DNA of 64,000 bases from Nitrospira sp. (GTDB taxonomy: Bacteria > Nitrospirota > Nitrospiria > Nitrospirales > Nitrospiraceae): positions 11,888 to 75,887 of the forward strand of contig JAFEBI010000006.1 in the NCBI GenBank assembly GCA_018242725.1, in the 5' to 3' direction. Shown here piece after piece: positions 14,226 to 36,810 of the stretch. The translations under genes and the position numbers were made by a program. The notes beneath the pieces are model-generated. The model was not told the DNA's origin, did not search any database, and was given only the letters and a program-made list of their open reading frames with translations. Positions within the stretch are counted from its first letter, which is position 1. Each line of letters starts with the position of its first letter.

Positions 14226-14229
14226 GGAC

Positions 14230-14637: not shown

Positions 14638-14702
14638 CCAGCTCTGCGCAGGCGTTCCATCACGGCTGGCCGATTGGCAGGATCGTCGGTAGAGAGCGAT
14701 TG

Positions 14703-15362: not shown

Positions 15363-15366
15363 CCCC

Positions 15367-15747: not shown

Positions 15748-15777
15748 CAGGTCTCATCTCTATCGAGAGGGGTCTTC

Positions 15778-16467: not shown

Positions 16468-17363
16468 GGCGGCTTTTCTATCTTGTTCGCGAGGCCTGGG
16501 CCAATATGCGGACGAATCGCATGACGACGATCGTTGCCATCTTGACCACGGCGTTTACGCTGACCTGTGTTGGAATCTTTCTCCTTCTCTATGTGAATTT
16601 ACAGCATGCGGCGGGATGGCTTCAGGAAGACGTCAAGATCATGGTGTATTTGGAGGATCGGCTCTCTCGAGATGGGCGTCTGCAGCTGGAACTCATGCTC
16701 AAGTCCGATCACATGGTAGGCAGTGTGCTCTTTATCTCGAAGGAACAGGCGTTGACAGAGTTCCGCGCGCAATTTCCCGCAGATTCTCATCTACTCGAAG
16801 GGCTTGGCGAGAATCCTCTCCCGGCCTCATTCGTCGTGACACTGGCCCAGAATTTTCGTTCTCCCGAGGCCATCAAAGGGTGGGTCGACCAAGTTCAAAC
16901 CATGGGAGGAGTGGCAAAGGTCGACTATAATCAGCAATGGATCAGCCTGTTGGCCGAGCTCATCGGCTATATTGAGTTGGTAGCGCTCGGCGTAGGGATT
17001 CTCCTCTCCGCCGCCGCGGTGACGATCATCGGCAATACGATCAGGCTTACCTTGTTTACCAGACGAGAAGAGATCGAAATTCTTCGCTCGATCGGAGCCA
17101 CCGGCACCTTCATCCGTGTTCCATACTTCCTCGAAGGAGCGGTGCTGGGAGCCTGTGGCAGCGCCTTATCCTTGGGAATTCTCAAGGTCGGGTTCGAACT
17201 GTTCCGGCAACAAGTTCAATTCGTCAACCGTTTCAGCGAAATGGAGGGGCTGATATCATTTTTCCCACTCTCTGCTTGTCTCGCGCTGGTCCTCGCTGGA
17301 ACGGCACTGGGTTTTACCGGCAGTGTGGTCTCGCTTCTGCGCATTGGAGAAGGACGTGTATGA
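16464..17363 (+). CDS. ftsX: Cell division permease FtsX
   Basis: Four-TM FtsX topology with a large periplasmic loop. ATGA overlaps with both neighbours. Confidence 0.9.
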   Translation: MRRLFYLVREAWANMRTNRMTTIVAILTTAFTLTCVGIFLLLYVNLQHAAGWLQEDVKIMVYLEDRLSRDGRLQLELMLKSDHMVGSVLFISKEQALTEFRAQFPADSHLLEGLGENPLPASFVVTLAQNFRSPEAIKGWVDQVQTMGGVAKVDYNQQWISLLAELIGYIELVALGVGILLSAAAVTIIGNTIRLTLFTRREEIEILRSIGATGTFIRVPYFLEGAVLGACGSALSLGILKVGFELFRQQVQFVNRFSEMEGLISFFPLSACLALVLAGTALGFTGSVVSLLRIGEGRV

Positions 17364-18541: not shown

Positions 18542-18606
18542 AGAGAAGTCGGGAACGCGCCTCCAGACCGAATGGTTCGATGGCGTAAGAAAGAAGGGAT
18601 GAAAAG

Positions 18607-22467: not shown

Positions 22468-22608
22468 TGCGATGTGCTGGCGCGTGAATTTGTCCCGAGT
22501 CAGAACGCCCGTCGGAGTTGACCACCCCTGGGTCGGATGTTAGAATCCCTCACACCAAACGTACTCTCGCTTAGGCTCGATATTTCGGGCTGGTCGTATC
22601 GTCTCACT

Positions 22609-24378
22609 ATGGCGGATAGCAAGAGTCAGCCAAACCGGCTCCGGTCCCTCCGAGATTCTGTCAAGAAGATTACAAAGCGGTTGTCCGAGGGGGAGGGGGA
22701 GATGATTCACAAGAACAGTGAACAGGCTCGGGAGCTCGACAAACTTCGTGTGCAAATTCAGTCGATGGAAGATGAGATCCGTCGGCTGTATCAATCTCGC
22801 TACCAACTCGACCAGGCGACCAAACAGAACGAGAAACTCGTCGCAACGCTGCAAGACGCCAAGGCTCAGATCGAGGCCCTGCGGGCTGAGGTGGAAAAGC
22901 TGACGGCGCCTCCGTCGAGCTACGCCATCTTTTCCAGTTTGAACGAAGACGGAACGGGCAATGTCTATGTGTCTGGGCGGAAAATGAAAGTGAGCCTTCA
23001 TCCCTCAATCAAACGGACTGAGCTGCGAAAGGGGCGAGAGGTTGTCCTGAATGAAGCCCTCAATGTGATCGAGGTCAAGGGGTTTGACAGCCAAGGGGAA
23101 GTCGTTCGACTCAAGGATGTGCTGGAAGGGGGCCGGGCATTGGTCACACTCCACTTCGACGAGGAGAAGGTGGCGGACCTGGGCGATCCTTTGTTGGCTG
23201 AACGGCTGAGTGTGGGAGACCACCTGCTCTACGATGCTCGTTCCGGCTACGTGATCGAAAAGCTCCCCAAGTCCGAAGCGGAAGAGTTGGTCTTGGAAGA
23301 AGTCCCGGATGTCGACTATGCGCATATCGGCGGCCTTCAGAAAGAGTTGGAACAGGTTCGCGATGCCGTCGAACTCCCGTTTCTGCATCCACAGGTCTTC
23401 GCAGAGTATCAACTCAGTGCGCCTAAGGGGGTGTTGCTCTATGGGCCGCCGGGTTGCGGAAAGACCCTGATCGCCAAAGCGGTGGCCAACTCAATCGCCA
23501 AGAAGCTGGGTGATCGATCCGGGAAAGAGATTCGGAGTTACTTTCTACATGTCAAAGGTCCGGAATTGCTCAATAAATACGTCGGTGAGTCGGAGCGTCA
23601 AGTCCGTGAGGTGTTCAAGAAAGCCAAGGAACGGGCCGAGGATGGGCATCCGGTGATCGTCTTTTTTGATGAGATGGATGCGCTCTTTCGAACCCGTGGG
23701 ACCGGCGTGTCTTCGGATATTGAATCAACGATCGTCCCCCAATTTCTCTCCGAGATCGATGGCGTCGAACGATTACGCAATGTCATCGTCATCGGAGCGA
23801 GCAATCGTCAGGATTTGATCGATCCGGCCGTGCTGCGTGCCGGGCGATTGGACGTCAAAGTGAAGGTAGGGCGTCCGGATGCCGACGCGGCGCGGGATAT
23901 TTTCTCCAAGTATATCTCGACAGCGCTTCCGTTTGCCGAGGAGGACGTCGCGCGACATGGAGGGGATCGGCACGCGCTCGTCGAGCGCTTGACAGAGATG
24001 ACTGTCGAAGCCATGTATGCGGCCAGCGAAGAAAATAAATTCATCGAAGTGACCTATGCCAACGGTGAAAAGGAAGTGCTGTACTTCAAGGACTTCGCCA
24101 GTGGCGCGTTGATTGAAGGGATCGTGTCGCGGGCGAAAAAGTTCGCCGTGAAGCGAGTAATCGCCAACGAGGGAACCGGTTTGCGATCGGACGACCTGAT
24201 CCGTGCCATTCGTGAAGAGTTCAAAGAACACGAAGATCTTCCGAATACCACCAATCCTGACGATTGGGCCAAGGTGGCCGGCAAGAAGGGTGAGAAGATC
24301 ATCCATCTTCGAACCATCAGCGGTGGACCGACGGAACATCGTCAGATTGAAACCATGAGTACCGGCCACTATCTCTAG
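22609..24378 (+). CDS. arc: Proteasome-associated AAA ATPase (ARC/Mpa)
   Basis: N-terminal coiled coil, OB domains, AAA module (GPPGCGKT, VIVFFDEMD, SRxxR). C-terminal ..TGHYL tail is analogous to the Mpa GQYL docking motif. Start uncertain (22537, 22609 or 22699). Confidence 0.93.
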   Translation: MADSKSQPNRLRSLRDSVKKITKRLSEGEGEMIHKNSEQARELDKLRVQIQSMEDEIRRLYQSRYQLDQATKQNEKLVATLQDAKAQIEALRAEVEKLTAPPSSYAIFSSLNEDGTGNVYVSGRKMKVSLHPSIKRTELRKGREVVLNEALNVIEVKGFDSQGEVVRLKDVLEGGRALVTLHFDEEKVADLGDPLLAERLSVGDHLLYDARSGYVIEKLPKSEAEELVLEEVPDVDYAHIGGLQKELEQVRDAVELPFLHPQVFAEYQLSAPKGVLLYGPPGCGKTLIAKAVANSIAKKLGDRSGKEIRSYFLHVKGPELLNKYVGESERQVREVFKKAKERAEDGHPVIVFFDEMDALFRTRGTGVSSDIESTIVPQFLSEIDGVERLRNVIVIGASNRQDLIDPAVLRAGRLDVKVKVGRPDADAARDIFSKYISTALPFAEEDVARHGGDRHALVERLTEMTVEAMYAASEENKFIEVTYANGEKEVLYFKDFASGALIEGIVSRAKKFAVKRVIANEGTGLRSDDLIRAIREEFKEHEDLPNTTNPDDWAKVAGKKGEKIIHLRTISGGPTEHRQIETMSTGHYL

Positions 24379-24382
24379 CGCC

Positions 24383-25885
24383 ATGATGAAAGAACACACT
24401 CCCACGAATTCAGCCAGGGTGCTTGGTACGGAAACGGAGTTCGGGATTGCCTCGAGAGATGCCTCGGCGATGGATCCGGTATCCGGGTCCTTTGCCGTGA
24501 TCGGGCACTATCCGAACCTGGCGGCTCCAACCTCGCTCTGGGACTACGAAAACGAGAATCCTTTGGTCGATGCGCGTGGGTTTGAGGTCGATGGTGAGCG
24601 CGAGCGTCCGAACCCGGACTATAACCGACAGTTGAATAAGGTGCTGGCGAACGGTGGACGCTTGTATGTGGATGGGGCCCATCCGGAGTACTCGACGCCT
24701 GAGTGTTCACACGCTCGAGAGATCGTAGCGTTTGAACGGGTAGGGGAACGCATTCTGGCTTCATGCCTGCAGACCATGGCCCGCGCGCGAGGCTTTGAAG
24801 TCTATACCCTCTATAAGAATAACTCCGACGGCAAGGGCAACAGTTACGGGTATCACGAGAACTACTTGGTCTCGAGAACGGTGTCGTTCGATCGGATTGC
24901 GCGTGTGCTGACTCCGTTTCTTGTGACCAGGCCGATCTTCGCCGGGGCGGGAAAAGTCGGCGCTGAAAATCAGACCACCCCAGCGGAGTATCAGATCTCT
25001 CAGCGGGCGGACTTTTTTGAATGTCTCATGGATCTCAACACGATGGTCAAGCGCCCGATCATCAACACGCGCGACGAACCGCATGCGGATGCGGCCAGGT
25101 TTCGGAGGCTGCATGTGATTGTGGGCGATGCCAACATGGCGGAGCTATCCACCTATCTCAAGGTCGGAACTTTGGACATCGTGTTGCATCTGCTGGAAGC
25201 TGGTGCTGACTTGCCGCAGATGGAACTCGAAGATCCGGTTCAAGTGTTCAAACAGATATCGCGAGACTTAGAAGTCAAGCAGACGGTGAAGTTGGTAGGG
25301 GGGAGGCCTACCACAGCGCTGGCGGTCCAACGAGCTTACCTGAGTGCGGCCAAAATATTTTATGCCTCGCAGGTACATAGTTCCGTTACCCAGGAAGTGC
25401 TGCTCCGTTGGGAAGAGGTGCTGAATATGCTTGAGCAGGATCCGCGTTTGCTGGTCCATTCATTGGACTGGGTGGCGAAGCGACACTTGATCGAGTCGTA
25501 CATGGAGCGAAAAGGCTGTAGCTGGGACGACCCACGCGTAAAATTAATGGACCTGCAATATCACGACGTGCGTCCTGAGAAGGGACTCTTCTACACGCTG
25601 GAGCGGAGTCAGCTGATCGAGCGGATCGTTGAGGAGGAAGAAATCCATCGGGCCGAGTCCCATCCTCCGACGGGTACGCGAGCGTATTTTCGTGGCCGCT
25701 GTGTGAGCAAGTTCGCGAAGTCGTTGTACGGCGCCAGTTGGACCTCGGTCTTGTTCGATGCCGGCGACACCACGATTAAGAAGGTTCCTTTGATGGATCC
25801 CCATCGTGGGACACAAGCTTTGACGGGGGCGCTGCTGGATTCTTCCGATTCGGTTGATGTGCTTCTTGAAAAACTCAAGGTGTGA
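24383..25885 (+). CDS. dop: Pup deamidase/depupylase Dop homologue
   Basis: Pup-ligase superfamily (LGTETEFGI.., NGGRLYVDGAHPEYSTPE, INTRDEPHAD..RFRRLHVIVGDANM). Longer than the second paralogue, with an extra loop near the N-terminus, and sits directly after arc as in known loci. Confidence 0.88.
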   Translation: MMKEHTPTNSARVLGTETEFGIASRDASAMDPVSGSFAVIGHYPNLAAPTSLWDYENENPLVDARGFEVDGERERPNPDYNRQLNKVLANGGRLYVDGAHPEYSTPECSHAREIVAFERVGERILASCLQTMARARGFEVYTLYKNNSDGKGNSYGYHENYLVSRTVSFDRIARVLTPFLVTRPIFAGAGKVGAENQTTPAEYQISQRADFFECLMDLNTMVKRPIINTRDEPHADAARFRRLHVIVGDANMAELSTYLKVGTLDIVLHLLEAGADLPQMELEDPVQVFKQISRDLEVKQTVKLVGGRPTTALAVQRAYLSAAKIFYASQVHSSVTQEVLLRWEEVLNMLEQDPRLLVHSLDWVAKRHLIESYMERKGCSWDDPRVKLMDLQYHDVRPEKGLFYTLERSQLIERIVEEEEIHRAESHPPTGTRAYFRGRCVSKFAKSLYGASWTSVLFDAGDTTIKKVPLMDPHRGTQALTGALLDSSDSVDVLLEKLKV

Positions 25886-25980
25886 CGAACGGTGGTTATC
25901 GTACGCTGCCCAAACGTACTTCAACATAGCCGCAAAGCACAAAACCATGGGAGGTAGCAAATCAATGAAGATCGCTCGCA

Positions 25981-26102
25981 GGATGGACAAAAAGGCCGTC
26001 CAGCAAGGCCGCAGCGAGCGAAGAGGCGAGGCATACTGTGTCCCGTATGGTGAGCCTCTGAACGACGCGAGAACGAAGCTGGCGGACTTTTTCAACATTC
26101 TG
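25981..26102 (-). repeat. Palindromic intergenic repeat, copy 2 (dop-prcB spacer), inverted relative to copy 1
   Basis: Its reverse complement aligns with 21613-21735 (about 80% identity by hand). It fills the slot where pup normally lies. Confidence 0.75.
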
Positions 26103-26113
26103 TCAGGGCCACG

Positions 26114-26929
26114 ATGAAGTTACCCCACCTCCCTGACCACGATGGGTCGAGTTTTGTGGAGTTCCTGTCGCGACATTATCCAGGCATGACGCTGGGAGCC
26201 AACGGACTCGTGCCGAACTCCGATCACGCGCGCACTGCTGGGGCAGTGTCAGTCCCCTCTGCGACGACCGTGTTGGCGATCAAGTATCAGCAGGGCGTGA
26301 TCATTGCCGGTGATCGCCGCGCCACCGAGGGATTTCAGATTGCCGATCGCCGGATTGAGAAGGTCTTCAAGATCGATGAGTGGTCGGCAATGGCGATTGC
26401 TGGTGCGGCCGGTCCCTGTATCGAGATGGCCAAGCTCTTCCAGACCGAGTTGGAGCATTACGAAAAATTGGAAGGCATGCCGCTTTCGTGCGAAGGGAAG
26501 GCCAATAAGCTTGGCCAGATGGTGAAGGCGAACTTGCCCATGGTGTTTCAGGGGTTAGTCGTGATGCCGCTCTATGTCGGCTATGATCTGAAACGTGGGG
26601 AGGGGCGTATTTTCAAGTACGACATCACCGGGGGGCGATACGAAGAGTCCGATTACCATGCGATCGGGTCCGGGGGAAAAGATGCCCGCAATACGATGCG
26701 GGAACACTTTCAGCGACATCTTCCCGAGGCGGAGGTGATCAAGCTGGCCCTCTTGGCACTCTACAATGCCGCGGATGACGATGTTGGGACTGGTGGTCCA
26801 GACCTCGTGCGGGGGATTTATCCCACCGCGAAGCTGGTGACCGCTCAAGGCATCACGGATGTCGCGGAGGACATACTCCGGACGGTCTGTGACGCCGTCA
26901 TGGCGGCTCGCCGTTCACGGGAGACATAA
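26114..26929 (+). CDS. prcB: 20S proteasome beta subunit PrcB
   Basis: Propeptide followed by TTVLAIKY..GVIIAGDRRATEG (catalytic Thr1 context). ELEHYEKLEG matches actinobacterial PrcB closely. Confidence 0.96.
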   Translation: MKLPHLPDHDGSSFVEFLSRHYPGMTLGANGLVPNSDHARTAGAVSVPSATTVLAIKYQQGVIIAGDRRATEGFQIADRRIEKVFKIDEWSAMAIAGAAGPCIEMAKLFQTELEHYEKLEGMPLSCEGKANKLGQMVKANLPMVFQGLVVMPLYVGYDLKRGEGRIFKYDITGGRYEESDYHAIGSGGKDARNTMREHFQRHLPEAEVIKLALLALYNAADDDVGTGGPDLVRGIYPTAKLVTAQGITDVAEDILRTVCDAVMAARRSRET

Positions 26930-26931
26930 CG

Positions 26932-27618
26932 ATGCCGATGCCCTACTACGTATCCCCTGAGCAGATGATGCATGATAAGGCGGAGTACGCCAAGAAGGGG
27001 ATCGCCAAGGGCCGATCGATCATCGCGATGGAGTATGTCGAAGGGATTCTCTTGGCTGCCGACAATCCGAGCGCCTCACTGCATAAAGTCTCTGAGATCT
27101 ACGACAATATTGCGTTTGCCGGGGCCGGCAAGTATAGCGAGTTCGAGAATCTTCGGAAGGCGGGGATTCGCCACGCCGATCTCAAGGGGTTCATGTATAG
27201 CCGGGAAGATGTGACCGGTCGGTCATTGGCGAATGGCTATTCGCAAAGTCTTGGGACCGTCTTCAGCCAGGAAATGAAACCGCTGGAGGTAGAAATTCTC
27301 GTCGTACAGACTGGTGCCAATACCCATCCGAATGAAATCTATCGTATTTCCTTTGATGGGAGCATCATCGACGAGAAGAGCTTTGCCGTGATCGGAGGAC
27401 GGGCGGACGTGGTACAGAGTTTCCTGAAGGAGAAAAGCCCAAGCCATGCCCCGAATCTCGACGAGGCTCTACGGCTTTGTGTGGCGGCTCTCGATCAAAC
27501 GGCCAATCAAAAGCTCCAGCCGGAGGGGTTGGAGGTTGCGGTGCTGGACCGCAGTCGGACCGGCCGCAAGTTCCGTCGCCTCTCAATCAGTGACATTCGA
27601 CGCGCGCTCTCTTCCTAA
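26932..27618 (+). CDS. prcA: 20S proteasome alpha subunit PrcA
   Basis: PYYVSPEQ.M.DKAEYA.KGIA.GRS N-terminus typical of bacterial PrcA. Follows prcB by 2 nt. Confidence 0.95.
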   Translation: MPMPYYVSPEQMMHDKAEYAKKGIAKGRSIIAMEYVEGILLAADNPSASLHKVSEIYDNIAFAGAGKYSEFENLRKAGIRHADLKGFMYSREDVTGRSLANGYSQSLGTVFSQEMKPLEVEILVVQTGANTHPNEIYRISFDGSIIDEKSFAVIGGRADVVQSFLKEKSPSHAPNLDEALRLCVAALDQTANQKLQPEGLEVAVLDRSRTGRKFRRLSISDIRRALSS

Positions 27619-27643
27619 CCTCTGCCGTCCATAATGGCATCCT

Positions 27644-27673
27644 TTGTTGAAGATCCCGGTCCGGGCGTATAAT
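27644..27673 (+). promoter_or_regulatory. Sigma70-like promoter in the prcA-pafA spacer
   Basis: TTGTTG (27644-27649), 18-nt spacer containing CCCGGTCCGGG, perfect TATAAT (27668-27673), 17 nt before the pafA ORF start. Confidence 0.3.
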
Positions 27674-27690
27674 CTGGGTGTGGCTCGCGC

Positions 27691-29085
27691 ATGATGACGG
27701 TGGGTCCCATGAAACAACGGATTTACGGCCTCGAGAACGAATACGGCCTCATTTTTTCTCCCAATGGCCGGATTTATCTGCCGATGGAAAAAGTCCTGGG
27801 ATATATTTTTGAGGGACTGATTCCGAACAGCTGGCCGTCGAATGCCTTTTTGGTCAATGGGGCTCGGTTCTATCAAGATACCGGCTGTCATCCGGAGTAT
27901 TCGACCCCGGAGTGCGACAATATCCTGGACCTTGTCGTGCATGATAAGGCGGGAGAGCGACTGCTGGAAGCCTGCCTACCTGCCGCAGAGGAGCGGCTCC
28001 GTGAGGAAGGGTTGTCCGGGGAGATCTATATTTTCAAGAACAATACGGACTCGTTGGGCAATACGTACGGATGCCACGAAAACTTCCTGATGCGACGGGA
28101 CGTCGACTTTTGGAAGGTCACCGAGCAGTTGATCCCGTTTTTCGTGACCAGGCAGATCTTCAGCGGTGCCGGGAAAGTTTTAAAGGTCTCGGGAAAGCCG
28201 CAGTATTTCATCTCGCAGCGCGCACAACATATTCATGAAAAAACCTCGTCATCGACGACGTCCTCTCGGAGCATCATCAATACCCGTGATGAGCCGCATT
28301 CCGATGCGGAACGATATCGTCGTTTGCATATCATCGTCGGCGATTCGAACATGTCCGAGTATGCCACCTACCTCAAGGTGGGAACCGCCGCGCTCGTCCT
28401 GTCGATGATCGAAGAGGGCTATGCGGTCCACGGAATGGAACTCGAAGACTCCGTGAAGGCGATCCGAGAGGTGTCTCGCGACCCCACATTGAAAAAGAAG
28501 GTGCGGCTCGATGACGGTCGGCAGATGACTGCCATTGAGCTTCAGCGGGTCTATCTGAGCCGGGCGAAGGATTATCTGGCTCAAGAAACACATGAGCCCA
28601 TTCTCGATGATGTGTGTAATAAATGGGAAACGGTGTTGCAGCAGTTGGAGGAAGATCCGATGCAGCTGACGCATCAGATCGATTGGGTCACAAAGAAACA
28701 TCTGATCCAATCCTATGTCGACAAGAAGGATTGTGGATGGGACGATCCGAGGGTGTTGCTGCTGGATCTGCAGTACCATGACGTGAAGCGGACGAGAGGG
28801 TTGTACTATCTGATGGAGTCACGTGGGTTGGTCGAACGAGTCGTGGAGGAAGATGCCGTTCAGCGGGCGATGTCCACCCCTCCACAAACCACGAGGGCAA
28901 AGGTGCGAGGCGACTTCATTCGTTTTGCGCGGGCAAAGAACCGATCCTATACGGTGGACTGGACCTATTTGAAACTGAATGGCTACTGGGAGGAAACGAT
29001 TCTCTGTATGGACCCCTTTAGTGCGTCGAATCGGCGGGTCGAAGAACTGATTTCGCAAGTTTCCGGAGGGCGATTCTACCGATGA
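27691..29085 (+). CDS. pafA: Pup-protein ligase PafA homologue
   Basis: RIYGLENEYG, NGARFYQDTGCHPEYSTPE, INTRDEPHSDAERYRRLHIIVGDSNM. Shorter paralogue lacking the Dop loop. Alternative start at 27709. Confidence 0.9.
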   Translation: MMTVGPMKQRIYGLENEYGLIFSPNGRIYLPMEKVLGYIFEGLIPNSWPSNAFLVNGARFYQDTGCHPEYSTPECDNILDLVVHDKAGERLLEACLPAAEERLREEGLSGEIYIFKNNTDSLGNTYGCHENFLMRRDVDFWKVTEQLIPFFVTRQIFSGAGKVLKVSGKPQYFISQRAQHIHEKTSSSTTSSRSIINTRDEPHSDAERYRRLHIIVGDSNMSEYATYLKVGTAALVLSMIEEGYAVHGMELEDSVKAIREVSRDPTLKKKVRLDDGRQMTAIELQRVYLSRAKDYLAQETHEPILDDVCNKWETVLQQLEEDPMQLTHQIDWVTKKHLIQSYVDKKDCGWDDPRVLLLDLQYHDVKRTRGLYYLMESRGLVERVVEEDAVQRAMSTPPQTTRAKVRGDFIRFARAKNRSYTVDWTYLKLNGYWEETILCMDPFSASNRRVEELISQVSGGRFYR

Positions 29086-30077
29086 AACTGTTGCTTGATC
29101 TCCGCCATCTCGGTCATATCAGAGCCAAATGGCTTGTAATGGTCGTCATACTGCTGGCTCATCTTGTCGGCGCGCCTTTGCCTGGCTCCATACCGCCTGC
29201 TCATAGTGCTGAGGGCCGTTATAGCGGCAAGCAGGGCCAAGTGCTTGTCGTGAAAGTCTCGTTGGAAGATGAATCGGCCATAGTACAAGGAACGTTTCTT
29301 GGTCGCTCCATCCGATTCTTTCCGGATCCGCGTTCTGAAGAGCCAAAAGGATTTGTGGGGTTGCTCGGGATTGATTTGCAAGATGAACCGGGAACACATG
29401 ACCTGATCGTTGAGTTGAAGCAAGGGGAACAGAGTCGTACGCTCAAATACAGCGTGTCGGTTCTCAAAGAGAAATTTCACGTCGAGCATCTCACGCTGCC
29501 CAAGGACAAGGTCGATCTTGACGAAAAGACCCTCGCTCGTTGGAAATCTGAGCAAGAGCAGGTGAAGTCGGCCTTGGCGACTGATTCGCCGGCGCGATTG
29601 TGGCAGCCTGGGTTTGTTGAGCCGGTGAACGGGAAGCGCACCGGTATTTTCGGCAGCGTTCGAATCATGAACGGCCAGCCACGGAATCCGCATAATGGCG
29701 AAGATATCGGGGCTCCGCTTGGTACACCGGTCGCAGCCACAAATGATGGCTTGGTGAAGCTCACCGTCGATCATTTTTTCTCCGGCAAGGGTATCTTTCT
29801 TGACCATGGATTGGGATTCTACTCAATGTATTTCCACCTGTCGGAAATCCTGGTCAAGGATGGCGACGTTGTGAAGGCCGGGCAGATCGTGGGAAAAGTC
29901 GGCGCCAGCGGTCGGGCCACCGGCCCGCATCTCCATTGGGGCGTGAAACTCAACGGCGCACGCGTGAACCCTTACGCACTGCTTGATCTCCCCTTCAAAG
30001 GTTCCGTCCAGTCCACAACTCCAGCGCCTGTGTCTAGCACTGAATCTGTCACCGGTATGGGGTCGCCGACTCCATAA
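29082..30077 (+). CDS. M23 family metallopeptidase (LytM-type)
   Basis: HNGEDIGAPLGTPVAA, SMYFHLSE, GPHLHWGV motifs. Signal/anchor N-terminus. ATGA overlap with the pafA stop. Confidence 0.88.
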   Translation: MKLLLDLRHLGHIRAKWLVMVVILLAHLVGAPLPGSIPPAHSAEGRYSGKQGQVLVVKVSLEDESAIVQGTFLGRSIRFFPDPRSEEPKGFVGLLGIDLQDEPGTHDLIVELKQGEQSRTLKYSVSVLKEKFHVEHLTLPKDKVDLDEKTLARWKSEQEQVKSALATDSPARLWQPGFVEPVNGKRTGIFGSVRIMNGQPRNPHNGEDIGAPLGTPVAATNDGLVKLTVDHFFSGKGIFLDHGLGFYSMYFHLSEILVKDGDVVKAGQIVGKVGASGRATGPHLHWGVKLNGARVNPYALLDLPFKGSVQSTTPAPVSSTESVTGMGSPTP

Positions 30078-30254
30078 GTGTATGACCTACATACGTTCGC
30101 TCTGAGCCCGTTGAAGGGCGACCAAGTATCACGAGAGGGTTAAGGCCAATACTGGTTTCAGTCTCTATCCCGTCCCATGATTTCCAGTTGACCTGAGTCT
30201 GACCGCAGGCATACCCTTTGGAACATCATTATTATTCACACTGAGTCATCCGTC

Positions 30255-30518
30255 ATGCGAACCTTCTTGTTCCTCTGCTCGGCGCTCTCCCTTCTCATCT
30301 CCGCGCACAAGTTTTCACTGGTCGATGCGAGCGGGCAGTACAAGGGCGCCTTATTCTTTCTCCTTCTCGGCATCCAGATGCTGATCACCGGGGCCCTCAT
30401 CGGTGATCACCAAGACGAGCGAGATCTCAAGTCACAGATGGAGACGGAGAAGAAAAACTGTGAAGGAACCGCTTCGCGCGTGACGAACCAAGCAGCAGAA
30501 CAGAGACGAGAGTCTTAA
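30255..30518 (+). CDS. Hypothetical small membrane protein
   Basis: 87-aa ORF with two hydrophobic segments and a charged tail. No RBS seen. Core-like GC. Confidence 0.3.
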   Translation: MRTFLFLCSALSLLISAHKFSLVDASGQYKGALFFLLLGIQMLITGALIGDHQDERDLKSQMETEKKNCEGTASRVTNQAAEQRRES

Positions 30519-30962
30519 CAGACCGTGCCTAAGGCACCTGAATCGGCGGTTAGGTCGATGGAAGTATGATGCCGTCGTAAGCGTACGAGGCATGAGCGAA
30601 AACCCGTTTTCCAGAAAGGTTGTTTATACCTGCCAATTTTCAGCAATCTACCTCCTTGCAGTTTTAGCCGCCCGGCTCAATAACTCGCACCTAAGTGTTC
30701 AAAATCAGCTGATCGACTTCAATGCGATTGTGAACTGCTCCGAGAGCAGGCTCAGTAAAAAGCTCATTCCAAGGGCAACGATGGAAGCAGTGTTGTCATG
30801 AACAAGATCGGCTATACGCCTGGAGTTATAAAGAGTGTGTGACCTTGGCCGGGAATATGTCCACAACAGTGACTTGATGCTCTTCAAGATGGGATGCGTC
30901 AGCCATGCAGGCACTGGCACCCCCAATGGCAGTCCGAATCCTCTCCTGAATCCATGCTGTAT

Positions 30963-30987
30963 CTAATCAGATTCAGTATCTGATTGG
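30963..30987. promoter_or_regulatory. Inverted repeat (candidate operator) in the low-GC spacer
   Basis: AATCAGAT-TCAGT-ATCTGATT is a perfect 8-bp inverted repeat with a 5-nt spacer (30965-30985). It extends to 10 bp with one mismatch. Confidence 0.3.
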
Positions 30988-31042
30988 ATTCACTGTCGCG
31001 AAATAATCCCCTACCGAACTAGCTCGGGATCGTTTTGATCTA

Positions 31043-31067
31043 TCACTGTAAATATTACGTACAGTGA
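31043..31067. promoter_or_regulatory. Inverted repeat (candidate operator) upstream of the PEP-CTERM genes
   Basis: TCACTGTA-AATATTACG-TACAGTGA is a perfect 8-bp inverted repeat with a 9-nt spacer, about 240 nt upstream of the ATG at 31306. Confidence 0.3.
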
Positions 31068-31305
31068 CAAATTCTTCGCTCAAAAATGAAACGCGAAAGA
31101 ATATTCAGCGCTTAGTTATAGTGGCGGCGTGAAACACTATCTGCATGTGCTCGTACGAGTGTAAGTAAACTTTACAGTTCACACCACCCAGCTAATCACA
31201 CCATCGAGTGTTTCAAAATGTTATTGGTTGGCCCGTATTTTGCCTGTTCTTAGTCGGGCTTTAGCATATTCATTTATTGCGGTCACTATTGGTAAGGAGT
31301 TCAGC

Positions 31306-31791
31306 ATGATTATGATTTGTCCATGGAGCAATAAGTCTTGCCTGATTACTATCTTGCTCGCTGCACTCGTGTTCCTCTGGACTTCGGCTGCCCATGCCAT
31401 CCCTAGCACTGGCAACTATGAATTCACCGGAGATTTAACAGGGACGTTTCATTCTACGGGGACTAGCCTAGATGAATGGAGTTTTTCTGATCCAATCGGT
31501 TACCTGTGGAGTAGCCAGGCGAACGACCAAACAACGCTTCAAAACGATCAGTCAACCTTTAGCCTGGCTAATGCACCTTCAGGACTCAATGAGATTATGT
31601 TTGATTGGAGACAAACAACCGTGTTTGGGTTGGGCGATGCCGGGAGCGAGGCCACCCAATTTGATGTCTTCGCACAGTTCTCACCTGTCGCGGTCTCCGC
31701 GGTGCCCGAACCGTCAACCGTCCTGCTGTTACTGACCGGGTTGGGCCTAGTTGCGGGCTATGGGTGGCGGCAACGGCGTCAGACCTGGTGA
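31306..31791 (+). CDS. PEP-CTERM sorting-domain protein (small, unknown passenger domain)
   Basis: AAGGAG RBS, signal peptide (..FLWTSAAHA). C-terminal VPEP + hydrophobic helix + RQRRQ is the PEP-CTERM architecture. Confidence 0.8.
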   Translation: MIMICPWSNKSCLITILLAALVFLWTSAAHAIPSTGNYEFTGDLTGTFHSTGTSLDEWSFSDPIGYLWSSQANDQTTLQNDQSTFSLANAPSGLNEIMFDWRQTTVFGLGDAGSEATQFDVFAQFSPVAVSAVPEPSTVLLLLTGLGLVAGYGWRQRRQTW

Positions 31792-31798
31792 CGCCGTT
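31772..31798 (+). terminator. Perfect 10-bp hairpin overlapping the stop codon of the first PEP-CTERM gene
   Basis: AACGGCGTCA-GACCTGG-TGACGCCGTT. The TGA stop (31789-31791) lies in the 3' arm. Only a short T run follows. Attenuator or terminator is possible. Confidence 0.35.
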
Positions 31799-31848
31799 TG
31801 CAGGTTCATCCACGTATTCAAATCAAGTAAAGACATGAGGTGCGAAAC

Positions 31849-32478
31849 ATGAAGGCCGTAACTGTGCGATTTCTGCTAGTAACATTGTTCGTCATTGGCC
31901 TTGTAATCCAAGAAGCCAAGGCGATTTCGCTCTCCTTCCAGCTGAGCTCGTCTTCGGCCACTGTCGGCGATACGGTGACGCTTAGCGCCGTGATCGGAGG
32001 GCTTGGTGACTTCACAAGTCCATCCTTGGGGGCGTTTGACTTCAACATTGATTTCGATCCCTCACTCGTGGCGTTGACGGCTTCGCCGATCACGTTCAGC
32101 ACGTTGTTGGGCGATGAGGGGGTGGGGGAATCACTGTCTGGGAGCAGTGCGACTGCGGGGTCGGTCAATCTGTTTGCTCTCTCATTTTTAACAGCGTTAG
32201 AGTTGAATGCCCTGCAACCCAGCAGTTTTACGCTGGCGACCCTGTCGTTTAAAGCGCTGGATTCCGGCGTGAATACCTTCACCTTTCCCACTTCCACTGC
32301 CATCTTGGGTGATGGAATCGGCGATCCATTGATCGCGACGCTTGGAAGCTCAATCCTGACCATTACCCCGATCACTCCTCCTCCGACCGGGGTGCCGGAG
32401 CCGGCGAGCGTGCTGCTGTTTGGGATTGGAATAGTGGCATTAGGAATGGCAAAAGCCTATGGTCTGAGGGCTAGGTAG
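31849..32478 (+). CDS. PEP-CTERM-anchored cohesin-like domain protein
   Basis: Signal peptide (..VIQEAKA). Cohesin-type pattern VGDTVTLSAVIGGLGDFTSPSLGAFDFNIDFDPSLVAL ... FTLATLSFKALDSGVNTFTF. PPPTG linker. VPEP + TM + basic tail (32392-32478). Confidence 0.75.
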   Translation: MKAVTVRFLLVTLFVIGLVIQEAKAISLSFQLSSSSATVGDTVTLSAVIGGLGDFTSPSLGAFDFNIDFDPSLVALTASPITFSTLLGDEGVGESLSGSSATAGSVNLFALSFLTALELNALQPSSFTLATLSFKALDSGVNTFTFPTSTAILGDGIGDPLIATLGSSILTITPITPPPTGVPEPASVLLFGIGIVALGMAKAYGLRAR

Positions 32479-32726
32479 TCATATGGTGTGCACTGAGCAG
32501 GGTAGTGATGATTAAGCCATGAGTGAGCCTGGCGGGTCAAATGTTCTGTGACGAGGGGTACGTCGTGTGAGTGAGAGACTGAAATGTGTCCGATGATGTG
32601 GCCAACGGATCTAGTCGTTTCAGGTCATCCGATGTCGGACATCTTGACAATTCCGTTCTTCGACATGACTGGGGCCGCGTTGGTGTTGTTCTGTGATGGT
32701 TGTTTCGAATTCTCACGAGGGGGATT

Positions 32727-35363
32727 ATGCGTAAACTGATATGGACCAATATTTCAATCTGGTCAATGCTGGGGGCAGTACTGCTTCTTGCAGCTCCCGG
32801 GTTTGCGAGTGTCTTTTATGATTACAAGAAAATTGCGGCCACGGGTGAAAATGGTATTACCGCAATTCAACCAGGAGTGTCAGTGAATGCGCAGGGAAGG
32901 GTAGCGTTTCAGGCTACTAAGGATGGCCGCGATAATGTCTTCGTTAGTGAGGGGACAGCGGCGGTTGACCTTCGTAACATTACCGCGAATCCGACCAGTG
33001 CCAGGCTCTTCAATGGCGGCGTACAGATCAATGATAATAATCAGGTAATTTCTCGAGATCGAATCGGCACTGCCTTGGGTCCTGAGTTTAGGCTGAGAAT
33101 CTGGGACTCCAACCTAACAACAGGTGCATTTATTAGTACGTTAGTGACCTGTGGCGGGTCATTTGGGAGCTGCCTCACTGTCCTTCCAAATCCAAGTTTG
33201 AGCAACGGTTCCTCTCCTCTTTTTGCTGCGAACATTGGGTTTTTAAGCGGCGGTATTTATGTGTGCAAGGATCTACTCTGCCCAATTGGTGGCGCTGGCC
33301 CGTTCGGGAGCGGACAATTTAAGGCCCCTCTCATTGCCACTTCAGGTGATTTCGTCATACGTAACGGCGATACAGCAACGAGTCCAATATCGGTCATTAA
33401 AACTGGCACTACATTCGATATTGCCTTTAGTGGGCTGGGGTGGACGGCTTTGGGAGCGAAACCGGGAATAAGCGACGATGGCTCAGTTGTCGCATTCGCA
33501 GGAAACAGAGGTTCCGGCGAGGGAGTTTTTACGAGCATTCAGTGGGGACCTAATTACGGTGATCGGACCACGGTAAGAGTAGCGGGCGAAGGGTTAACGG
33601 TGGGATTTCCTGACTTGGGCGCTGACCTGGTGGTTGGTAATGCGAGGTATTTTTCTCAGGTTTCAATAGACGAGCGAATTGGAGTAACTCGACATGTTGC
33701 TGAGGCTAGCGATCCTACTGGGTTAAAAGAGACCATCGTCGTTTCGTTCTTAGCAACGCCCAACTTAAAGAGTCCTACAAATTCATATATAAGTGGGTTG
33801 GTATTTTCGGACCAGCTGGCTTTATGGACAAGAAGAATTGATGTGATGGATTGGAACTCTTCAATGCCACTGCTCTTCAATGAAGTGGCTTTGACTGGTA
33901 GTCTCAAGCTTGTATATCACTATCCGATTCCAGTCGCTCAAGTTGGCGAGAAGATTCTAATTGGCCCAGAGGAGCTTCTGATTAGTGGATTGGTAGTCCA
34001 TGATCCACTTTCTACGGATAAAATAGGGCGAAATGATTCTGTAGGAAACCCAATGACCAAAAGACCTGGTGACCATTTTGTAGTGTTTATGGCACAAAGT
34101 GGAACCAGTCAGGTTATCCTTCGTGCTGATCACCAAAGCGCTTGTATTCTTTTTGTTCAACGGCTAGCGCAGGGTGGGAATGTTGCTGATGATCCAGTTG
34201 ACTGGCAAGGTGAAAGATTAGATACGCATTTACGGTGGCTAGAACCCCCTGTAGGAACACAAGGAACTATTGGGAAAAGAGGCTGCGTGTTGACTGCTTT
34301 TACCATGCAAATGAACTATGCAGCCGAGCATAGCGGAATCAGGCTTCTTAGTAACCCAGGTTTCATGAACGATGTGCTTAAGGGTGTTCCTGGCGCATTC
34401 AGCATAGGCATTGATTATGACGATCCAGGTGCTGACCTCAAGCGTGATGTTGCAGCCGAGGAATACGTGAAATCTCAGCTTAAGCCAATGGCACCAGGGG
34501 ATCCGAAAGTGGCAGGGATTATGTTTGATGAAACGGTAAAGTACTCTACAAGCCCAGCTGCACAATTGTACTTGAAAGACATGCTATGTAACAGCGGGTT
34601 GCCAATTGAAATAAGGGTTAAGGGTAGTGATGGCACGGACTATGCCCATTCTGTGCTAGTGACAGGGACCGTAAACGATAGATTCATTATTGTTGATCCT
34701 GGACACAGAGATAGGAGCTCGCTGTCTGGCCCCCCCTATGATGGGAAATATCGTACTAAGGGTGTAATTACCGATCCGCCAAACAAAAGTAAGGTAATTG
34801 TTTCAATAGGTAGCAACGCGGACATTGACGTCAGTAACGATCAAGGGTTGCATACAAATGCTGGTCAGGCAGGTATACCACTGTCAGTTTATGACACCGA
34901 TTTGGGTGTTGATGAAGAATCGACTGCGCCCCAGGTGCCGACTATAATGAGGTATGTCAGCATTAAGCAGCCGCAGAATGCCCAATATACGATTGTCATT
35001 AAAGGTTTGCGAGCTGGGCCATTCAAGCTTGAAGTTGCTATCATTGAACCAGATGGGACTGTTCAGCCACGGATAATCTTTGACGGTACTGCAACAGCAG
35101 GATCCACCCAATCACTACAACTAAAAGTTGACACTGCGATAAGCGGGAATTCCACACTGACCTCGACGCCAAGTATTTCTGGCGACCTCGATGGCGACAG
35201 TGACATCGACAAGAATGATATCGCAGTCATTCTGGCGGCTAAAGGGACTGCCGCCTCCGGTCCGAATGATCCCCGCGACATCGATAAGGATGGCAAGATC
35301 ACAATTCTCGACGCCAGAAAGCTGAGCACGATGTGTACTAGACTGAACTGCGCGACCCAATAG
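32727..35363 (+). CDS. Secreted multidomain protein: repeat-rich N-terminal region, papain-like cysteine peptidase domain, beta-sandwich, C-terminal dockerin-like module
   Basis: GAGGGGG RBS before the ATG at 32727, signal peptide. Recurrent P.INN.G.VAF-type repeats in the first ~480 aa. GCVLTAFTMQMNY (Cys codon 34284), AHSVLVTG (His codon 34647), FIIVDPG (Asp codon 34695). GDLDGDSDIDKND..DIDKDGKITILD at 35181-35324. Markedly low GC. Confidence 0.75.
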   Translation: MRKLIWTNISIWSMLGAVLLLAAPGFASVFYDYKKIAATGENGITAIQPGVSVNAQGRVAFQATKDGRDNVFVSEGTAAVDLRNITANPTSARLFNGGVQINDNNQVISRDRIGTALGPEFRLRIWDSNLTTGAFISTLVTCGGSFGSCLTVLPNPSLSNGSSPLFAANIGFLSGGIYVCKDLLCPIGGAGPFGSGQFKAPLIATSGDFVIRNGDTATSPISVIKTGTTFDIAFSGLGWTALGAKPGISDDGSVVAFAGNRGSGEGVFTSIQWGPNYGDRTTVRVAGEGLTVGFPDLGADLVVGNARYFSQVSIDERIGVTRHVAEASDPTGLKETIVVSFLATPNLKSPTNSYISGLVFSDQLALWTRRIDVMDWNSSMPLLFNEVALTGSLKLVYHYPIPVAQVGEKILIGPEELLISGLVVHDPLSTDKIGRNDSVGNPMTKRPGDHFVVFMAQSGTSQVILRADHQSACILFVQRLAQGGNVADDPVDWQGERLDTHLRWLEPPVGTQGTIGKRGCVLTAFTMQMNYAAEHSGIRLLSNPGFMNDVLKGVPGAFSIGIDYDDPGADLKRDVAAEEYVKSQLKPMAPGDPKVAGIMFDETVKYSTSPAAQLYLKDMLCNSGLPIEIRVKGSDGTDYAHSVLVTGTVNDRFIIVDPGHRDRSSLSGPPYDGKYRTKGVITDPPNKSKVIVSIGSNADIDVSNDQGLHTNAGQAGIPLSVYDTDLGVDEESTAPQVPTIMRYVSIKQPQNAQYTIVIKGLRAGPFKLEVAIIEPDGTVQPRIIFDGTATAGSTQSLQLKVDTAISGNSTLTSTPSISGDLDGDSDIDKNDIAVILAAKGTAASGPNDPRDIDKDGKITILDARKLSTMCTRLNCATQ

Positions 35364-35374
35364 CATAGAATCCT

Positions 35375-35409
35375 GAGGAGGGGCTCTCTTCTGAAGAGAG
35401 CCCCTCCTC
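35375..35409 (+). terminator. Strong hairpin after the dockerin-protein gene
   Basis: GAGGAGGGGCTCTCTTC / GAAGAGAGCCCCTCCTC form a near-perfect 17-bp palindrome 12 nt after the stop. No U-tract. Confidence 0.5.
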
Positions 35410-35436
35410 CTGCGCACCAATTGAGGAAGTTGTGGT

Positions 35437-35727
35437 ATGAGATGTCTCGTTCAGATGAAGAAAGCGGCTATAGGCGGTGTATCATGTCTATTCCTGGCGG
35501 GGGCCTTAAGCTGTGGACCTGGTGGCTCCCCAGCAGGGTCAGAGGGAACCAGTAGCTCCCCGCCGAGGAAAGCGGTCGTTACGGATTATCCAAGGGCAGC
35601 AGAGCTGGTTCAGAATGCACCAACTCCTCCCCAACCTCGTGTCGAGGTCACGGATGATTGCCTTGCTTTTCTTATGAATAAACATCCACGCGCCACTGCT
35701 TGCGACAACCCTCCCAAGGCCCCCTGA
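35437..35727 (+). CDS. Hypothetical small secreted/lipoprotein-like protein
   Basis: GAGGAAG RBS. N-terminal hydrophobic segment ending ..LAGALSCG (non-canonical lipobox). Pro/Ser-rich. Confidence 0.45.
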   Translation: MRCLVQMKKAAIGGVSCLFLAGALSCGPGGSPAGSEGTSSSPPRKAVVTDYPRAAELVQNAPTPPQPRVEVTDDCLAFLMNKHPRATACDNPPKAP

Positions 35728-35734
35728 AATCATC

Positions 35735-35998
35735 TCATTGATGGCTGCCGCCATCGACTGATGTCAGCGGAATAGACCCTTGTCTGGGAAAGCGATCACA
35801 GTATCTTGACAGCGAGGGTGGTTGCCGCACGCTGACGATGGTTTTCAGATCGGGTCTATGGTGGGTGGGATATTTGGATCCATCGAGCTCACTGAGTGGA
35901 TATGACAGTTTCTGACGCATCTGAGGAACGGTAGGTTCCAATTTAGCCAGCTTCCCAGGAGCTTCATACCCGAGCTTCCAGTCTGCACGCCAGCCCAT
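35735..35998 (-). CDS. Hypothetical protein, short diverged paralogue of ORF 36887-37204
   Basis: The segment LAKLEPTVPQMRQKLSYPLSELDGSKYPTHHRPD aligns with LELETPVPHMRQKLSIPLSELEVSEDSTHYTRDPD of the downstream ORF. About 70% nt identity over ~100 bp by hand. No RBS. May be a remnant. Confidence 0.3.
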   Translation of the reverse strand: MGWRADWKLGYEAPGKLAKLEPTVPQMRQKLSYPLSELDGSKYPTHHRPDLKTIVSVRQPPSLSRYCDRFPRQGSIPLTSVDGGSHQ

Positions 35999-36078
35999 AG
36001 CACGGTGTATCGTGCTTCTTCATGATGAACGTGTTGGATTTTGTACAATCGAGCGTGACATGCTATGAATAGCACGTC

Positions 36079-36810
36079 ATGAACGAGCTCCTCACCTCTA
36101 TTGCCACAAAGAAGAGGCAACTCGACGCGTTGCGTCCTCTATCAGGCGCGGCCTTGTTGGCTCTACAGAAATCCTATGATGTGGACTTGACCTATACGTC
36201 CAACGCCATTGAAGGCAATACGCTGACCTTGCGAGAAACGGCGGAGCTGATCGAGCATGGGATTACCGTCGGGGGAAAACCCTTGCGCGATCATCTCGAA
36301 GCAATCGATCACTACGAGGCGGTCATTTGGATGCGCGAACTGGCAGCCAAAACGACACCGATTGCTGAAAACACCGTGCGCGAGTTGCACCGACGTCTTG
36401 TGTCCCGCAGTCAGCCTGAGATCGGCGGGATGTACAGTACCCTTCCCCGCCGCATTGCCGGTTCCCCAGTGGTCTTTCCGAATGCGGTGAAAATTCCCGA
36501 GCTGATGCAGGCCTATGGCGAATGGATTTCGCAAGCGGCATCAGAACCGGCAGCCAGCTTTGATGCGCATTACCGGCTTGTGGCCATTCACCCGTTTGCG
36601 GATGGCAACGGGCGTACGGCCAGGCTGGTGATGAATATCTTGCTCTTGCGTGGCGGATATCCACCGGTTGCTGTACGACCGGAAGACCGAAAAGCCTACC
36701 TTGATACACTTGAGCATGCGTCGATGAAGGACGATCTGACGCCCTTTCAGGATTTCATGCACCAACGGCTGGACGCAACATTGGGAGAGTATCTCACTGC
36801 CTTGCAGTAG
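36079..36810 (+). CDS. fic: Fic family protein (class II, intramolecular inhibitory helix)
   Basis: Fic core motif HPFADGNGRTAR (36589-36624). N-terminal S-x-x-x-E-G inhibitory motif SNAIEG (36199-36216). Confidence 0.9.
   Translation: MNELLTSIATKKRQLDALRPLSGAALLALQKSYDVDLTYTSNAIEGNTLTLRETAELIEHGITVGGKPLRDHLEAIDHYEAVIWMRELAAKTTPIAENTVRELHRRLVSRSQPEIGGMYSTLPRRIAGSPVVFPNAVKIPELMQAYGEWISQAASEPAASFDAHYRLVAIHPFADGNGRTARLVMNILLLRGGYPPVAVRPEDRKAYLDTLEHASMKDDLTPFQDFMHQRLDATLGEYLTALQ

Follow-up and report, generated by a model that had tools for sequence, protein, structure and literature searches.

A cohesin protein with a PEP-CTERM signal and an adjoining dockerin-bearing peptidase in Nitrospira: a candidate exosortase-linked surface display module

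Introduction

How might a secreted enzyme with no sorting signal of its own be kept at the cell surface? The question is raised by two adjoining genes, here called B and C, in a 64-kb stretch of DNA from a Nitrospira sp. (contig JAFEBI010000006.1 of assembly GCA_018242725.1). This stretch is referred to as the window, and all coordinates are those of its forward strand. Gene B encodes a small protein with a cohesin fold and a PEP-CTERM sorting signal, and gene C encodes a large secreted protein that, as judged by family comparison, ends in a dockerin. A preliminary description of the locus, made from the sequence alone, had proposed that the former anchors the latter to the envelope or matrix. 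We consider anchoring of C at the surface or in the matrix through cohesin-dockerin binding to be probable (roughly 0.65), and the best-supported view of the pair is that B would be an exosortase-sorted socket and C its docked enzyme.

Results

The cohesin protein

Gene B (31849..32478, + strand) starts with an ATG at 31849 that is preceded by a GAGG ribosome-binding site, and encodes 209 residues followed by a stop codon at 32476-32478. As judged by reading of the sequence, the protein begins with a signal peptide (residues 1-25, 31849..31923, cleavage AKA/I) that forms an N-terminal helix in the AlphaFold2 (AF2) model. This is followed by a cohesin module of about 148 residues (26-173, 31924..32367), a proline-rich linker PITPPPTG that varies in length among homologues (32368..32391), and a PEP-CTERM signal (32392..32478) in which VPEP is followed by the transmembrane helix ASVLLFGIGIVALGMA and then by RAR at the end, before the stop. 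B thus has the layout of a PEP-CTERM substrate, with a signal peptide at one end and the PEP motif, helix and basic residues at the other. All four parts had been named in the preliminary description, with positions for the ORF and the PEP-CTERM tail; these coordinates were confirmed, and the cohesin-type strings quoted there are present.

The scores of B against single hidden Markov models (HMMs) were borderline. TIGR02595 (PEP-CTERM) was matched above its cut-off (18.4 bits versus 16, E 0.0027), whereas Pfam PEP-CTERM (PF07589) gave 20.4 bits (cut-off 20.7) and Pfam Cohesin (PF00963) 23.2 bits (cut-off 24.1, E 8.7e-5, profile positions 3-120 of 139). Hence the HMM matches foreseen in the preliminary description were obtained for the sorting signal but fell marginally below the gathering threshold for Cohesin, and likewise for Dockerin_1 in gene C (see below). 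Because of these borderline scores, each module was tested at the family level. The family of B comprises 48 homologues of about 200 residues with a shared architecture, 47 of which were aligned. Pfam Cohesin was matched by 27 of the aligned homologues at E<0.01 (best 2.2e-6) and PF07589 by 35; in six of them a VPDSG-CTERM signal replaces PEP-CTERM. P183 of B is invariant across the family.

The AF2 model of B, built on the family alignment, reached a predicted local distance difference test (pLDDT) score of 91.8 and displays the flattened beta-sandwich (jelly-roll) that characterises cohesins. When this model was compared with the PDB by Foldseek, the top 50 matches were cohesin modules only, most of them from solved cohesin-dockerin complexes; the best was 6kgf_C (E 3.6e-11, template modelling (TM) score on the target 0.80, range over the matches 0.78-0.83). 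The family profile likewise retrieved cohesins first from the PDB, with 3l8q_A as the best match (E 5.5e-4). The family-level and structural tests therefore remove the doubt raised by the marginal single-sequence scores: B has the cohesin fold and carries a signal for PEP-CTERM sorting.

The dockerin

Gene C (32727..35363, + strand) begins 248 nt downstream of gene B on the same strand, as the preliminary description had it, with an ATG at 32727 and a GAGGGGG ribosome-binding site, and encodes 878 residues plus a stop. In other assemblies, an identical protein (P0049) is called adjoining B. Its last 60 residues (819-878, 35181..35360, starting with G819 at nt 35181) contain two F-hand Ca loops, DLDGDSDIDKND and DIDKDGKITILD, which lie 31 residues apart and are each followed by a helix, giving the two tandem loop-helix segments of about 22 residues expected of a dockerin. 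The module further includes the linker TAASGPNDPRD, an ILDARKL helix and a C-terminal CTRLNC cysteine pair, the end of the protein being GDLDGDSDIDKNDIAVILAAKGTAASGPNDPRDIDKDGKITILDARKLSTMCTRLNCATQ.

The score of C against Pfam Dockerin_1 (PF00404) was 18.5 bits (cut-off 22.9, E 0.0024), and that against a dockerin family HMM built in the present analysis was 94.6 bits. At E<1e-3, Dockerin_1 was matched by 21 of the 50 family members; the best E-value was 2.3e-13, and the relatives P0101, P0160 and P0181 scored 43-53 bits. A dockerin profile of 34 sequences gave the dockerin 2y3n_B as its first PDB match (E 2.2e-9), followed by other dockerins intermixed with EF-hand proteins; a search for further homologues with this type of profile gave mainly short fragments and contributed little. 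These comparisons indicate that C ends in a dockerin and bear out the duplicated Ca-loop segment that had earlier been noticed from 35181 onwards.

Across the family, the most conserved part is the second repeat, DxDxDGxITxLDAR. The first repeat is more variable, and the module is therefore without internal symmetry. The subtype is further marked by the linker RNxPASGPxDPRD (or a cysteine-containing variant), the conserved LDAR helix and a C-terminal Cys-x4-Cys (CTRPRC) that is present in at least 90% of the sequences. Eight dockerins have an extra cysteine at position 3 (xCD), and all eight also have one after DAR (DARxC), a covariation that fits a disulfide clasp joining both ends of the folded module. 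The cysteines imply an oxidising, extracytoplasmic location. In some dockerins SGPxDPRD is replaced by CxxC or CGxxC linkers; at least three disulfide subtypes can be told apart, two of which may share one locus (L024, L058), and examples in the alignment are found at L024 (1112-1984), L025 (2291-4912), L031, L040, L043, L045 and L067. We also considered CTRPRC as a sorting signal in its own right and rejected this, since no transmembrane helix follows and the motif lies internally when the dockerin is N-terminal (L028, L036, L043, L049, L064).

Pairing of the two modules across phyla

A genome scan with 15 closer cohesin-PEP-CTERM sequences, keeping one genome per species, yielded 50 loci from about nine phyla overall: Nitrospirota, Gamma-, Beta- and Alphaproteobacteria, Acidobacteriota, Verrucomicrobiota, Desulfobacterota, Myxococcota, Spirochaetota, Deferribacterota and one cyanobacterium. 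A regular-expression pass on the adjacent open reading frames (ORFs) located a dockerin at most of the loci, and an HMM made from those matches was then applied. At 45 of the 50 loci the same distinctive dockerin was encoded in the immediately adjoining gene. Four of the remaining five have the cohesin gene at a contig end, which leaves 45 of 46 loci with usable flanks paired. The co-occurrence in relatives on which the preliminary description depended was thus found. The HMM had almost no matches elsewhere in the flanks, and in 39 loci the dockerin-coding end lies no more than 500 nt from the cohesin gene. In the commonest order, the cargo gene is directly upstream of the cohesin gene with its dockerin C-terminal, and downstream cargo genes often carry an N-terminal dockerin. 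In the remaining loci, the window included, a downstream cargo gene abuts the cohesin gene with the dockerin at its far end.

The modules attached to these dockerins differ widely: an amidase in Methyloversatilis, VWA7_N, VWA and Ig_VWA7 domains in Pelomonas Root1444, BNR/sortilin propellers in Methylomonas and Methylobacter, and PKD/RHS proteins in Methylocaldum, as well as TSP3 with CARDB, a NosD-like beta-helix, DUF11, cadherin and Big_9 domains and a rhamnogalacturonan-lyase-like protein (PcRGLX_2nd, L005). In Nitrospira sp. UBA5699 the cohesin is 68% identical to B, and a dockerin about 77% identical to that of C sits two genes downstream on an Ig_VWA7/PASTA protein. We take this combination of constant modules and unrelated cargo as the decisive comparative evidence, and it supports the view of the two modules as a socket-plus-plug pair.

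The same evidence bears on the possibility that the two proteins do not bind each other at all and are co-regulated matrix proteins, the dockerin-like part serving as a Ca-binding stabiliser or polysaccharide-binding tag and the cohesin-like part as a structural or carbohydrate-binding beta-sandwich. The marginal single-sequence HMM scores would be in line with this, as would the resemblance of the dockerin profile to EF-hand proteins and the statement in the literature (PMC5244752, citing Peer et al. 2009) that the functions of non-cellulosomal cohesins and dockerins are mostly unknown. However, unless the two constant modules interact specifically, it is difficult to account for their pairing at 45 of 46 loci over about nine phyla in which the cargo is unrelated, and all of the top 50 structural matches of B were cohesins, most of them solved together with a dockerin. 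We therefore regard the absence of direct binding as improbable.

B might also be an inhibitor, an immunity protein or a dedicated chaperone of the peptidase C rather than its anchor, given that the two genes adjoin on one strand and that inhibitors are commonly encoded by a small gene next to that of a secreted peptidase. Yet B-type proteins also accompany non-enzymatic cargo (PKD, cadherin, CARDB, VWA), the sole feature common to their partners is the dockerin and not a catalytic domain, and B itself bears a surface-sorting signal, which makes such a role very hard to credit.

Some loci vary the arrangement. The VWA7-like cargo of Pelomonas Root1444 is one protein (VWA7_N, VWA_4, Ig_VWA7, dockerin), and that of UBA5699 is split into a VWA7_N gene and an adjoining Ig_VWA7/PASTA-dockerin gene (L002/L019 10877-13654 and L066 10594-13392). 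At L062 (2891-6253, a metagenome-assembled genome (MAG) of Myxococcaceae), the cohesin-PEP-CTERM region lacks a stop and reads through in frame into another signal peptide, followed by a cargo whose C-terminal dockerin is degenerate; a lost stop codon, an assembly error or a real fusion are all possible. L038 (4506-9945, Thermoanaerobaculia MAG) has two cohesin-PEP-CTERM genes in tandem, with a separate N-terminal-dockerin gene behind each of them, and is a duplicated module. An apparent cohesin-dockerin fusion at L041 was discarded, as its two matches lie in different reading frames.

The secreted peptidase

With regard to the cargo in the window, C starts with a signal peptide as judged by sequence reading (residues 1-27, 32727..32807, cleavage after GFA), followed by an N-terminal beta-propeller (about residues 30-470, 32814..34136). 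This is the only part for which the AF2 model of the whole protein was usable; the peptidase, Ig-like and dockerin parts had pLDDT below 50. Foldseek matched the propeller to those of prolyl endopeptidase, paraoxonase and TolB, and in homologues this type of propeller precedes metzincin domains. Next comes a C39-like papain-fold cysteine peptidase domain (about residues 505-700, 34239..34826) with predicted catalytic residues Cys520 (34284-34286), His641 (34647-34649) and Asp657 (34695-34697), all verified at codon level. Between this domain and the dockerin lies an Ig-like beta-sandwich spacer (about residues 701-812, 34827..35162), which is all-beta in the low-confidence AF2 region and weakly matches a bacterial Ig domain in the PDB.

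Because of the low AF2 confidence outside residues 30-470, the peptidase assignment rests on homologues and invariant residues. C itself reached no Pfam threshold and had no Pfam match in this domain; its homologues P0146, P0160, P0164 and P0198 gave scores of 51.0, 26.7, 23.8 and 23.8 bits against Peptidase_C39_2 (PF13529, cut-off 24 bits). In an alignment of the peptidase and Ig-like region of 15 sequences (A6), the Cys (GCxLT), His (HxVLVTG) and Asp-Pro were invariant, and the Ig-like spacer was conserved alongside. A profile of the C39 domain gave 3erv, a putative C39-like peptidase, as its best PDB match (weak, E 0.01), followed by the peptidase domains of ComA and PCAT, also at weak E-values. 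The domain and its homologues share with these C39-like peptidases the motifs GC(A/V)LT, HxVLVTG and xDP with their invariant Cys, His and Asp. In C, the domain is not part of an ABC transporter but lies between a beta-propeller and an Ig-like spacer plus dockerin in a Sec-secreted protein. The Peptidase_C39_2 matches of the homologues and their invariant Cys/His/Asp support the classification of C as a secreted cysteine peptidase rather than a carbohydrate-active enzyme, which agrees with the peptidase-like cargo that had been suspected.

No glycoside hydrolase or carbohydrate-binding module (CBM) was matched in C with Pfam and NCBIfam, and most cargo in the family is not carbohydrate-active. 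This matters for the idea of a miniature cellulosome for polysaccharide degradation, which is suggested by the use of cohesin and dockerin as cellulosome assembly modules and by a few carbohydrate-related cargoes (PcRGLX_2nd in L005; Sde0182_C and fn3_3 domains). A cellulosome would, however, involve a multi-cohesin scaffoldin and dockerin proteins with glycoside hydrolase domains, neither of which is found at the locus, and the hosts are diderm nitrifiers, methylotrophs and similar bacteria. With a single cohesin and cargo that is not carbohydrate-active, the locus is therefore not a cellulosome, and we give this idea next to no credence.

The exosortase link

No ORF of at least 230 residues with at least six hydrophobic segments was found in the window. 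As there is no polytopic membrane ORF, the window contains no exosortase, in keeping with the preliminary description. We also screened the surroundings of the 50 loci within 10 kb, by a hydrophobicity filter followed by Pfam. One exosortase was found, and the other nine hydrophobic candidates were transporters, COX1, Lnt and similar proteins. The exosortase (Exosortase_EpsH, PF09721, 236 bits, plus DUF3485) is encoded in L058 (Nitrospirales bacterium NPIRA02, BQIV01000008.1, cluster 4358-18701), directly after a cohesin-PEP-CTERM gene. The cluster consists, in order, of an N-terminal-dockerin tyrosinase, two HEAT-repeat proteins, SCO1/SenC, a cohesin-PEP-CTERM protein, a BNR-dockerin protein, a multicopper oxidase-dockerin protein, a second cohesin-PEP-CTERM protein and the exosortase. 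In this relative, cohesin-PEP-CTERM genes, dockerin enzymes and an exosortase thus stand together in a single cluster, which is a direct link at the gene level. The composition of the cluster suggests a set of matrix-bound oxidative enzymes. SCO1/SenC is a copper chaperone, clustered here with copper-enzyme cargo, namely the tyrosinase and the multicopper oxidase. A further family member (L005/L006) is located among the asparagine synthase, glycosyltransferase and Wzy genes of a polysaccharide locus, which is a classic setting for exosortase systems (PMC1569441).

Surroundings of the locus

Gene B and gene C lie, together with a third same-strand gene (A), between a block of Pup-proteasome and M23 peptidase genes and a Fic gene. 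Gene A (31306..31791, + strand, 161 residues) is located 57 nt upstream of B and encodes a non-cohesin PEP-CTERM protein (Pfam PEP-CTERM 29.9 bits, TIGR02595 27.3 bits). We considered it as a second cohesin and dismissed this, as only its PEP-CTERM tail matches the cohesin-family HMM. Gene A is likely co-transcribed with B but is not a conserved part of the module; no intact counterpart was found in the syntenic close relative L001. Scans for sigma-70 promoters and terminators in 30000-36200 gave no more than expected by chance, and no terminator was found to separate B from C. About 63 nt before the gene A ATG is a sigma-54-like -24/-12 element, TGGCCCGTATTTTGC (31229-31243, + strand), which departs from TGGCAC-N5-TTGC at one position. 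Over the whole window this pattern had 63 matches versus 59 expected, which is chance level, and the gene A site is no more than a lead. PEP-CTERM genes are RpoN-dependent in Aquincola (PMC9850573).

The upstream block (22537-30077 including the M23 gene, + strand), identified by synteny with L001 and by Pfam, is a complete Pup-proteasome set with an AAA ATPase, a Pup-ligase-family gene, two proteasome subunits and a second Pup-ligase-family gene (27691-29085, + strand), followed by the M23 peptidase (29082-30077, + strand; best NCBIfam similarity to Pgp3, below the cut-off). This block and the best cohesin match, which is to Nitrospira sp. UBA5699, both point to a Nitrospira-like host. Directly after C follows an ORF of 96 residues (35437-35727, + strand) that encodes a Pro/Ser-rich protein with a signal peptide and, in LAGALSC, a possible lipobox; it occupies the same position in L001 (76% identity) and L009, matches no family, and could be an accessory protein or a peptidase inhibitor. 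The Fic-domain protein (36079-36810, + strand; Pfam Fic 63 bits) has a 95% identical counterpart in L001, close to a gene that weakly matches Pfam MazE_antitoxin.

L001 keeps B (81% identity) and C (65%) together. The M23 peptidase, an 87-residue ORF, B, C and the 96-residue ORF are 65-81% identical to their L001 counterparts, compared with 94-98% for the flanking proteasome, Pup-ligase and Fic genes; the surface genes therefore evolve or are exchanged much faster than their surroundings. Divergence, or allelic exchange, is thus locally concentrated in the segment 30100-35400, and the Fic gene marks the downstream edge of the fast-diverging stretch. The preliminary description had called the segment low in GC and probably acquired. 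The first point holds for C (48.1%) and for 30100-35400 (49.5%) relative to the window (54.5%), but not for B (54.9%). The second is only weakly supported. The divergence far exceeds that of the flanks, but the locus is syntenic in a close relative.

Discussion

Anchoring and export

In our proposal, B and C would constitute a display module of two genes that acts at the surface or in the matrix. After its export by the Sec pathway, B would stay in the inner membrane through its PEP-CTERM helix until an exosortase, whose gene would lie elsewhere in the genome, cleaves it and it is handed to the outer envelope or the exopolysaccharide layer, as has been proposed for PEP-CTERM proteins in general. 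C, also a candidate for Sec export and predicted to have no sorting signal of its own, would bind the single cohesin of B through its disulfide-containing, Ca-binding dockerin, and the enzyme would therefore be kept at the surface or in the matrix and not diffuse off. Cohesin and dockerin would together act as a portable socket-and-plug cassette which different lineages have fitted with different cargo. PEP-CTERM proteins have been located outside the cell (PMC1569441, PMC12188702, PMC9850573). In this scheme we infer that cohesin and dockerin bind and that an exosortase of this organism processes B, as well as where the complex ends up, how it crosses the outer membrane and what the peptidase cleaves.

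Several observations weigh against this anchoring scheme. The single-sequence Pfam scores of the Cohesin match in B and the Dockerin_1 match in C are just below the gathering thresholds. There is no exosortase within the 64 kb, and only one of the 50 loci (L058) has one within 10 kb. The locus in Hormoscilla (L032) has full flanks and a cohesin with no dockerin neighbour. Finally, the scheme leaves the passage of a docked 878-residue protein through the outer membrane without explanation.

In an alternative reading, docking would take place in the periplasm before export, and the PEP-CTERM cohesin would mainly carry folded cargo that has no sorting signal along the exosortase/exopolysaccharide route, as an export adaptor, and not capture cargo already secreted to the surface. 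The cargo has a Sec signal only and no outer-membrane targeting feature; one dedicated cohesin gene stands beside the cargo gene with gaps of mostly 16-400 nt, suggesting stoichiometric co-expression; both partners would be periplasmic at once under the PEP-CTERM model of Haft et al. (PMC1569441); and the L058 cluster adjoins an exosortase. On the other hand, no route is known by which large folded complexes travel with PEP-CTERM proteins, the sequence does not distinguish this from docking after secretion, and the several dockerin genes per cohesin in L058, L024 and L049 fit a shared anchor equally well. We consider piggyback export unlikely, though worth keeping in mind. That the pair is a general, horizontally mobile adaptor cassette, through which the exosortase pathway exports and displays folded cargo lacking a sorting signal, we put forward only tentatively, as a possibility with the odds against it.

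Relation to known systems

If the anchoring scheme is correct, the nearest functional parallels are the single-cohesin anchoring proteins of Gram-positive cellulosome producers. ScaE of Ruminococcus flavefaciens has a single cohesin and is anchored by sortase through an LPXTG signal. The SLH-anchored proteins OlpA and OlpC of Clostridium thermocellum likewise combine one cohesin with an envelope anchor to hold a dockerin protein on the cell, and 3ul4_A and 4dh2_C, from their complexes (PDB 3ul4, 4dh2), rank 6th and 7th among the structural matches of B. The present proteins differ in having a PEP-CTERM/exosortase anchor in diderms instead of SLH repeats or LPXTG in monoderms, non-cellulolytic cargo, a one-to-one pairing of the cohesin gene with a neighbouring cargo gene, and a dockerin of a distinct subtype (RNxPASGPxDPRD linker, LDAR helix, CTRPRC). 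By analogy, B-type proteins may be seen as the functional diderm counterpart of single-cohesin anchoring proteins.

B shares with the substrates of PEP-CTERM/exosortase systems (EpsH, XrtA; PMC1569441) the signal peptide, PEP motif, helix and basic cluster, as well as the occurrence in environmental diderms. The genes of those systems are scattered, and some are found in polysaccharide loci (L005) or next to the exosortase gene (L058). In the PEP-CTERM proteins described so far, the protein that is sorted is the end product, in contrast to B, which would be a small adaptor whose only other module serves protein-protein docking and which would extend exosortase sorting to cargo without PEP-CTERM. 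Cohesins and dockerins beyond cellulose degradation are also known from the NagJ/NagH toxin complex of Clostridium perfringens, an Archaeoglobus fulgidus cohesin (2xdh) and anaerobic methanotrophic (ANME) archaea, and 2vo8, 2jh2, 2w1n and 2xdh were among the Foldseek matches of B. Those modules (Peer et al. 2009, as cited in PMC5244752) sit in large enzymes or are orphans with no defined anchoring route, in contrast to the conserved two-gene cassette with an exosortase signal found here.

Annotation pipelines already recognise the single domains, to judge by database names such as 'cohesin domain-containing protein' or 'dockerin type I domain-containing protein'. The founding PEP-CTERM paper (Haft et al. 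2006, PMC1569441) mentions neither cohesin nor dockerin, and a full-text literature search found PEP-CTERM together with neither of them; exosortase and dockerin were co-mentioned only in a review on ANME archaea, which does not connect them. The pairing of cohesin and dockerin and its tie to exosortase sorting appear undescribed, and the recurrence of the pair points to an undescribed form of protein attachment to the surface or slime layer in double-membraned bacteria.

Biological significance

Two gaps meet at this locus: the role of cohesin and dockerin beyond cellulosomes, and what the exosortase/PEP-CTERM system delivers to the surface or matrix of environmental bacteria. Genetic work could make use of cultured carriers (Methyloversatilis XJ19-13 and XJ19-49, Pelomonas Root1444, Methylocaldum GT1BB), and the duplicated module of L038 would suit a test of pair specificity. 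The family also offers a natural candidate cohesin-dockerin pair for surface display in Gram-negative hosts. Should the adaptor-cassette proposal be true, it would reveal a piggyback branch of exosortase sorting in about nine diderm phyla that serves proteases, oxidases, amidases and adhesins, and would for the first time assign a defined role in the cell to cohesins and dockerins outside cellulosomes. For the organisms themselves, the model predicts that enzymes such as proteases, multicopper oxidases, tyrosinases and amidases would be fixed in the biofilm or floc matrix of nitrifiers, methanotrophs, methylotrophs, acidobacteria and others.

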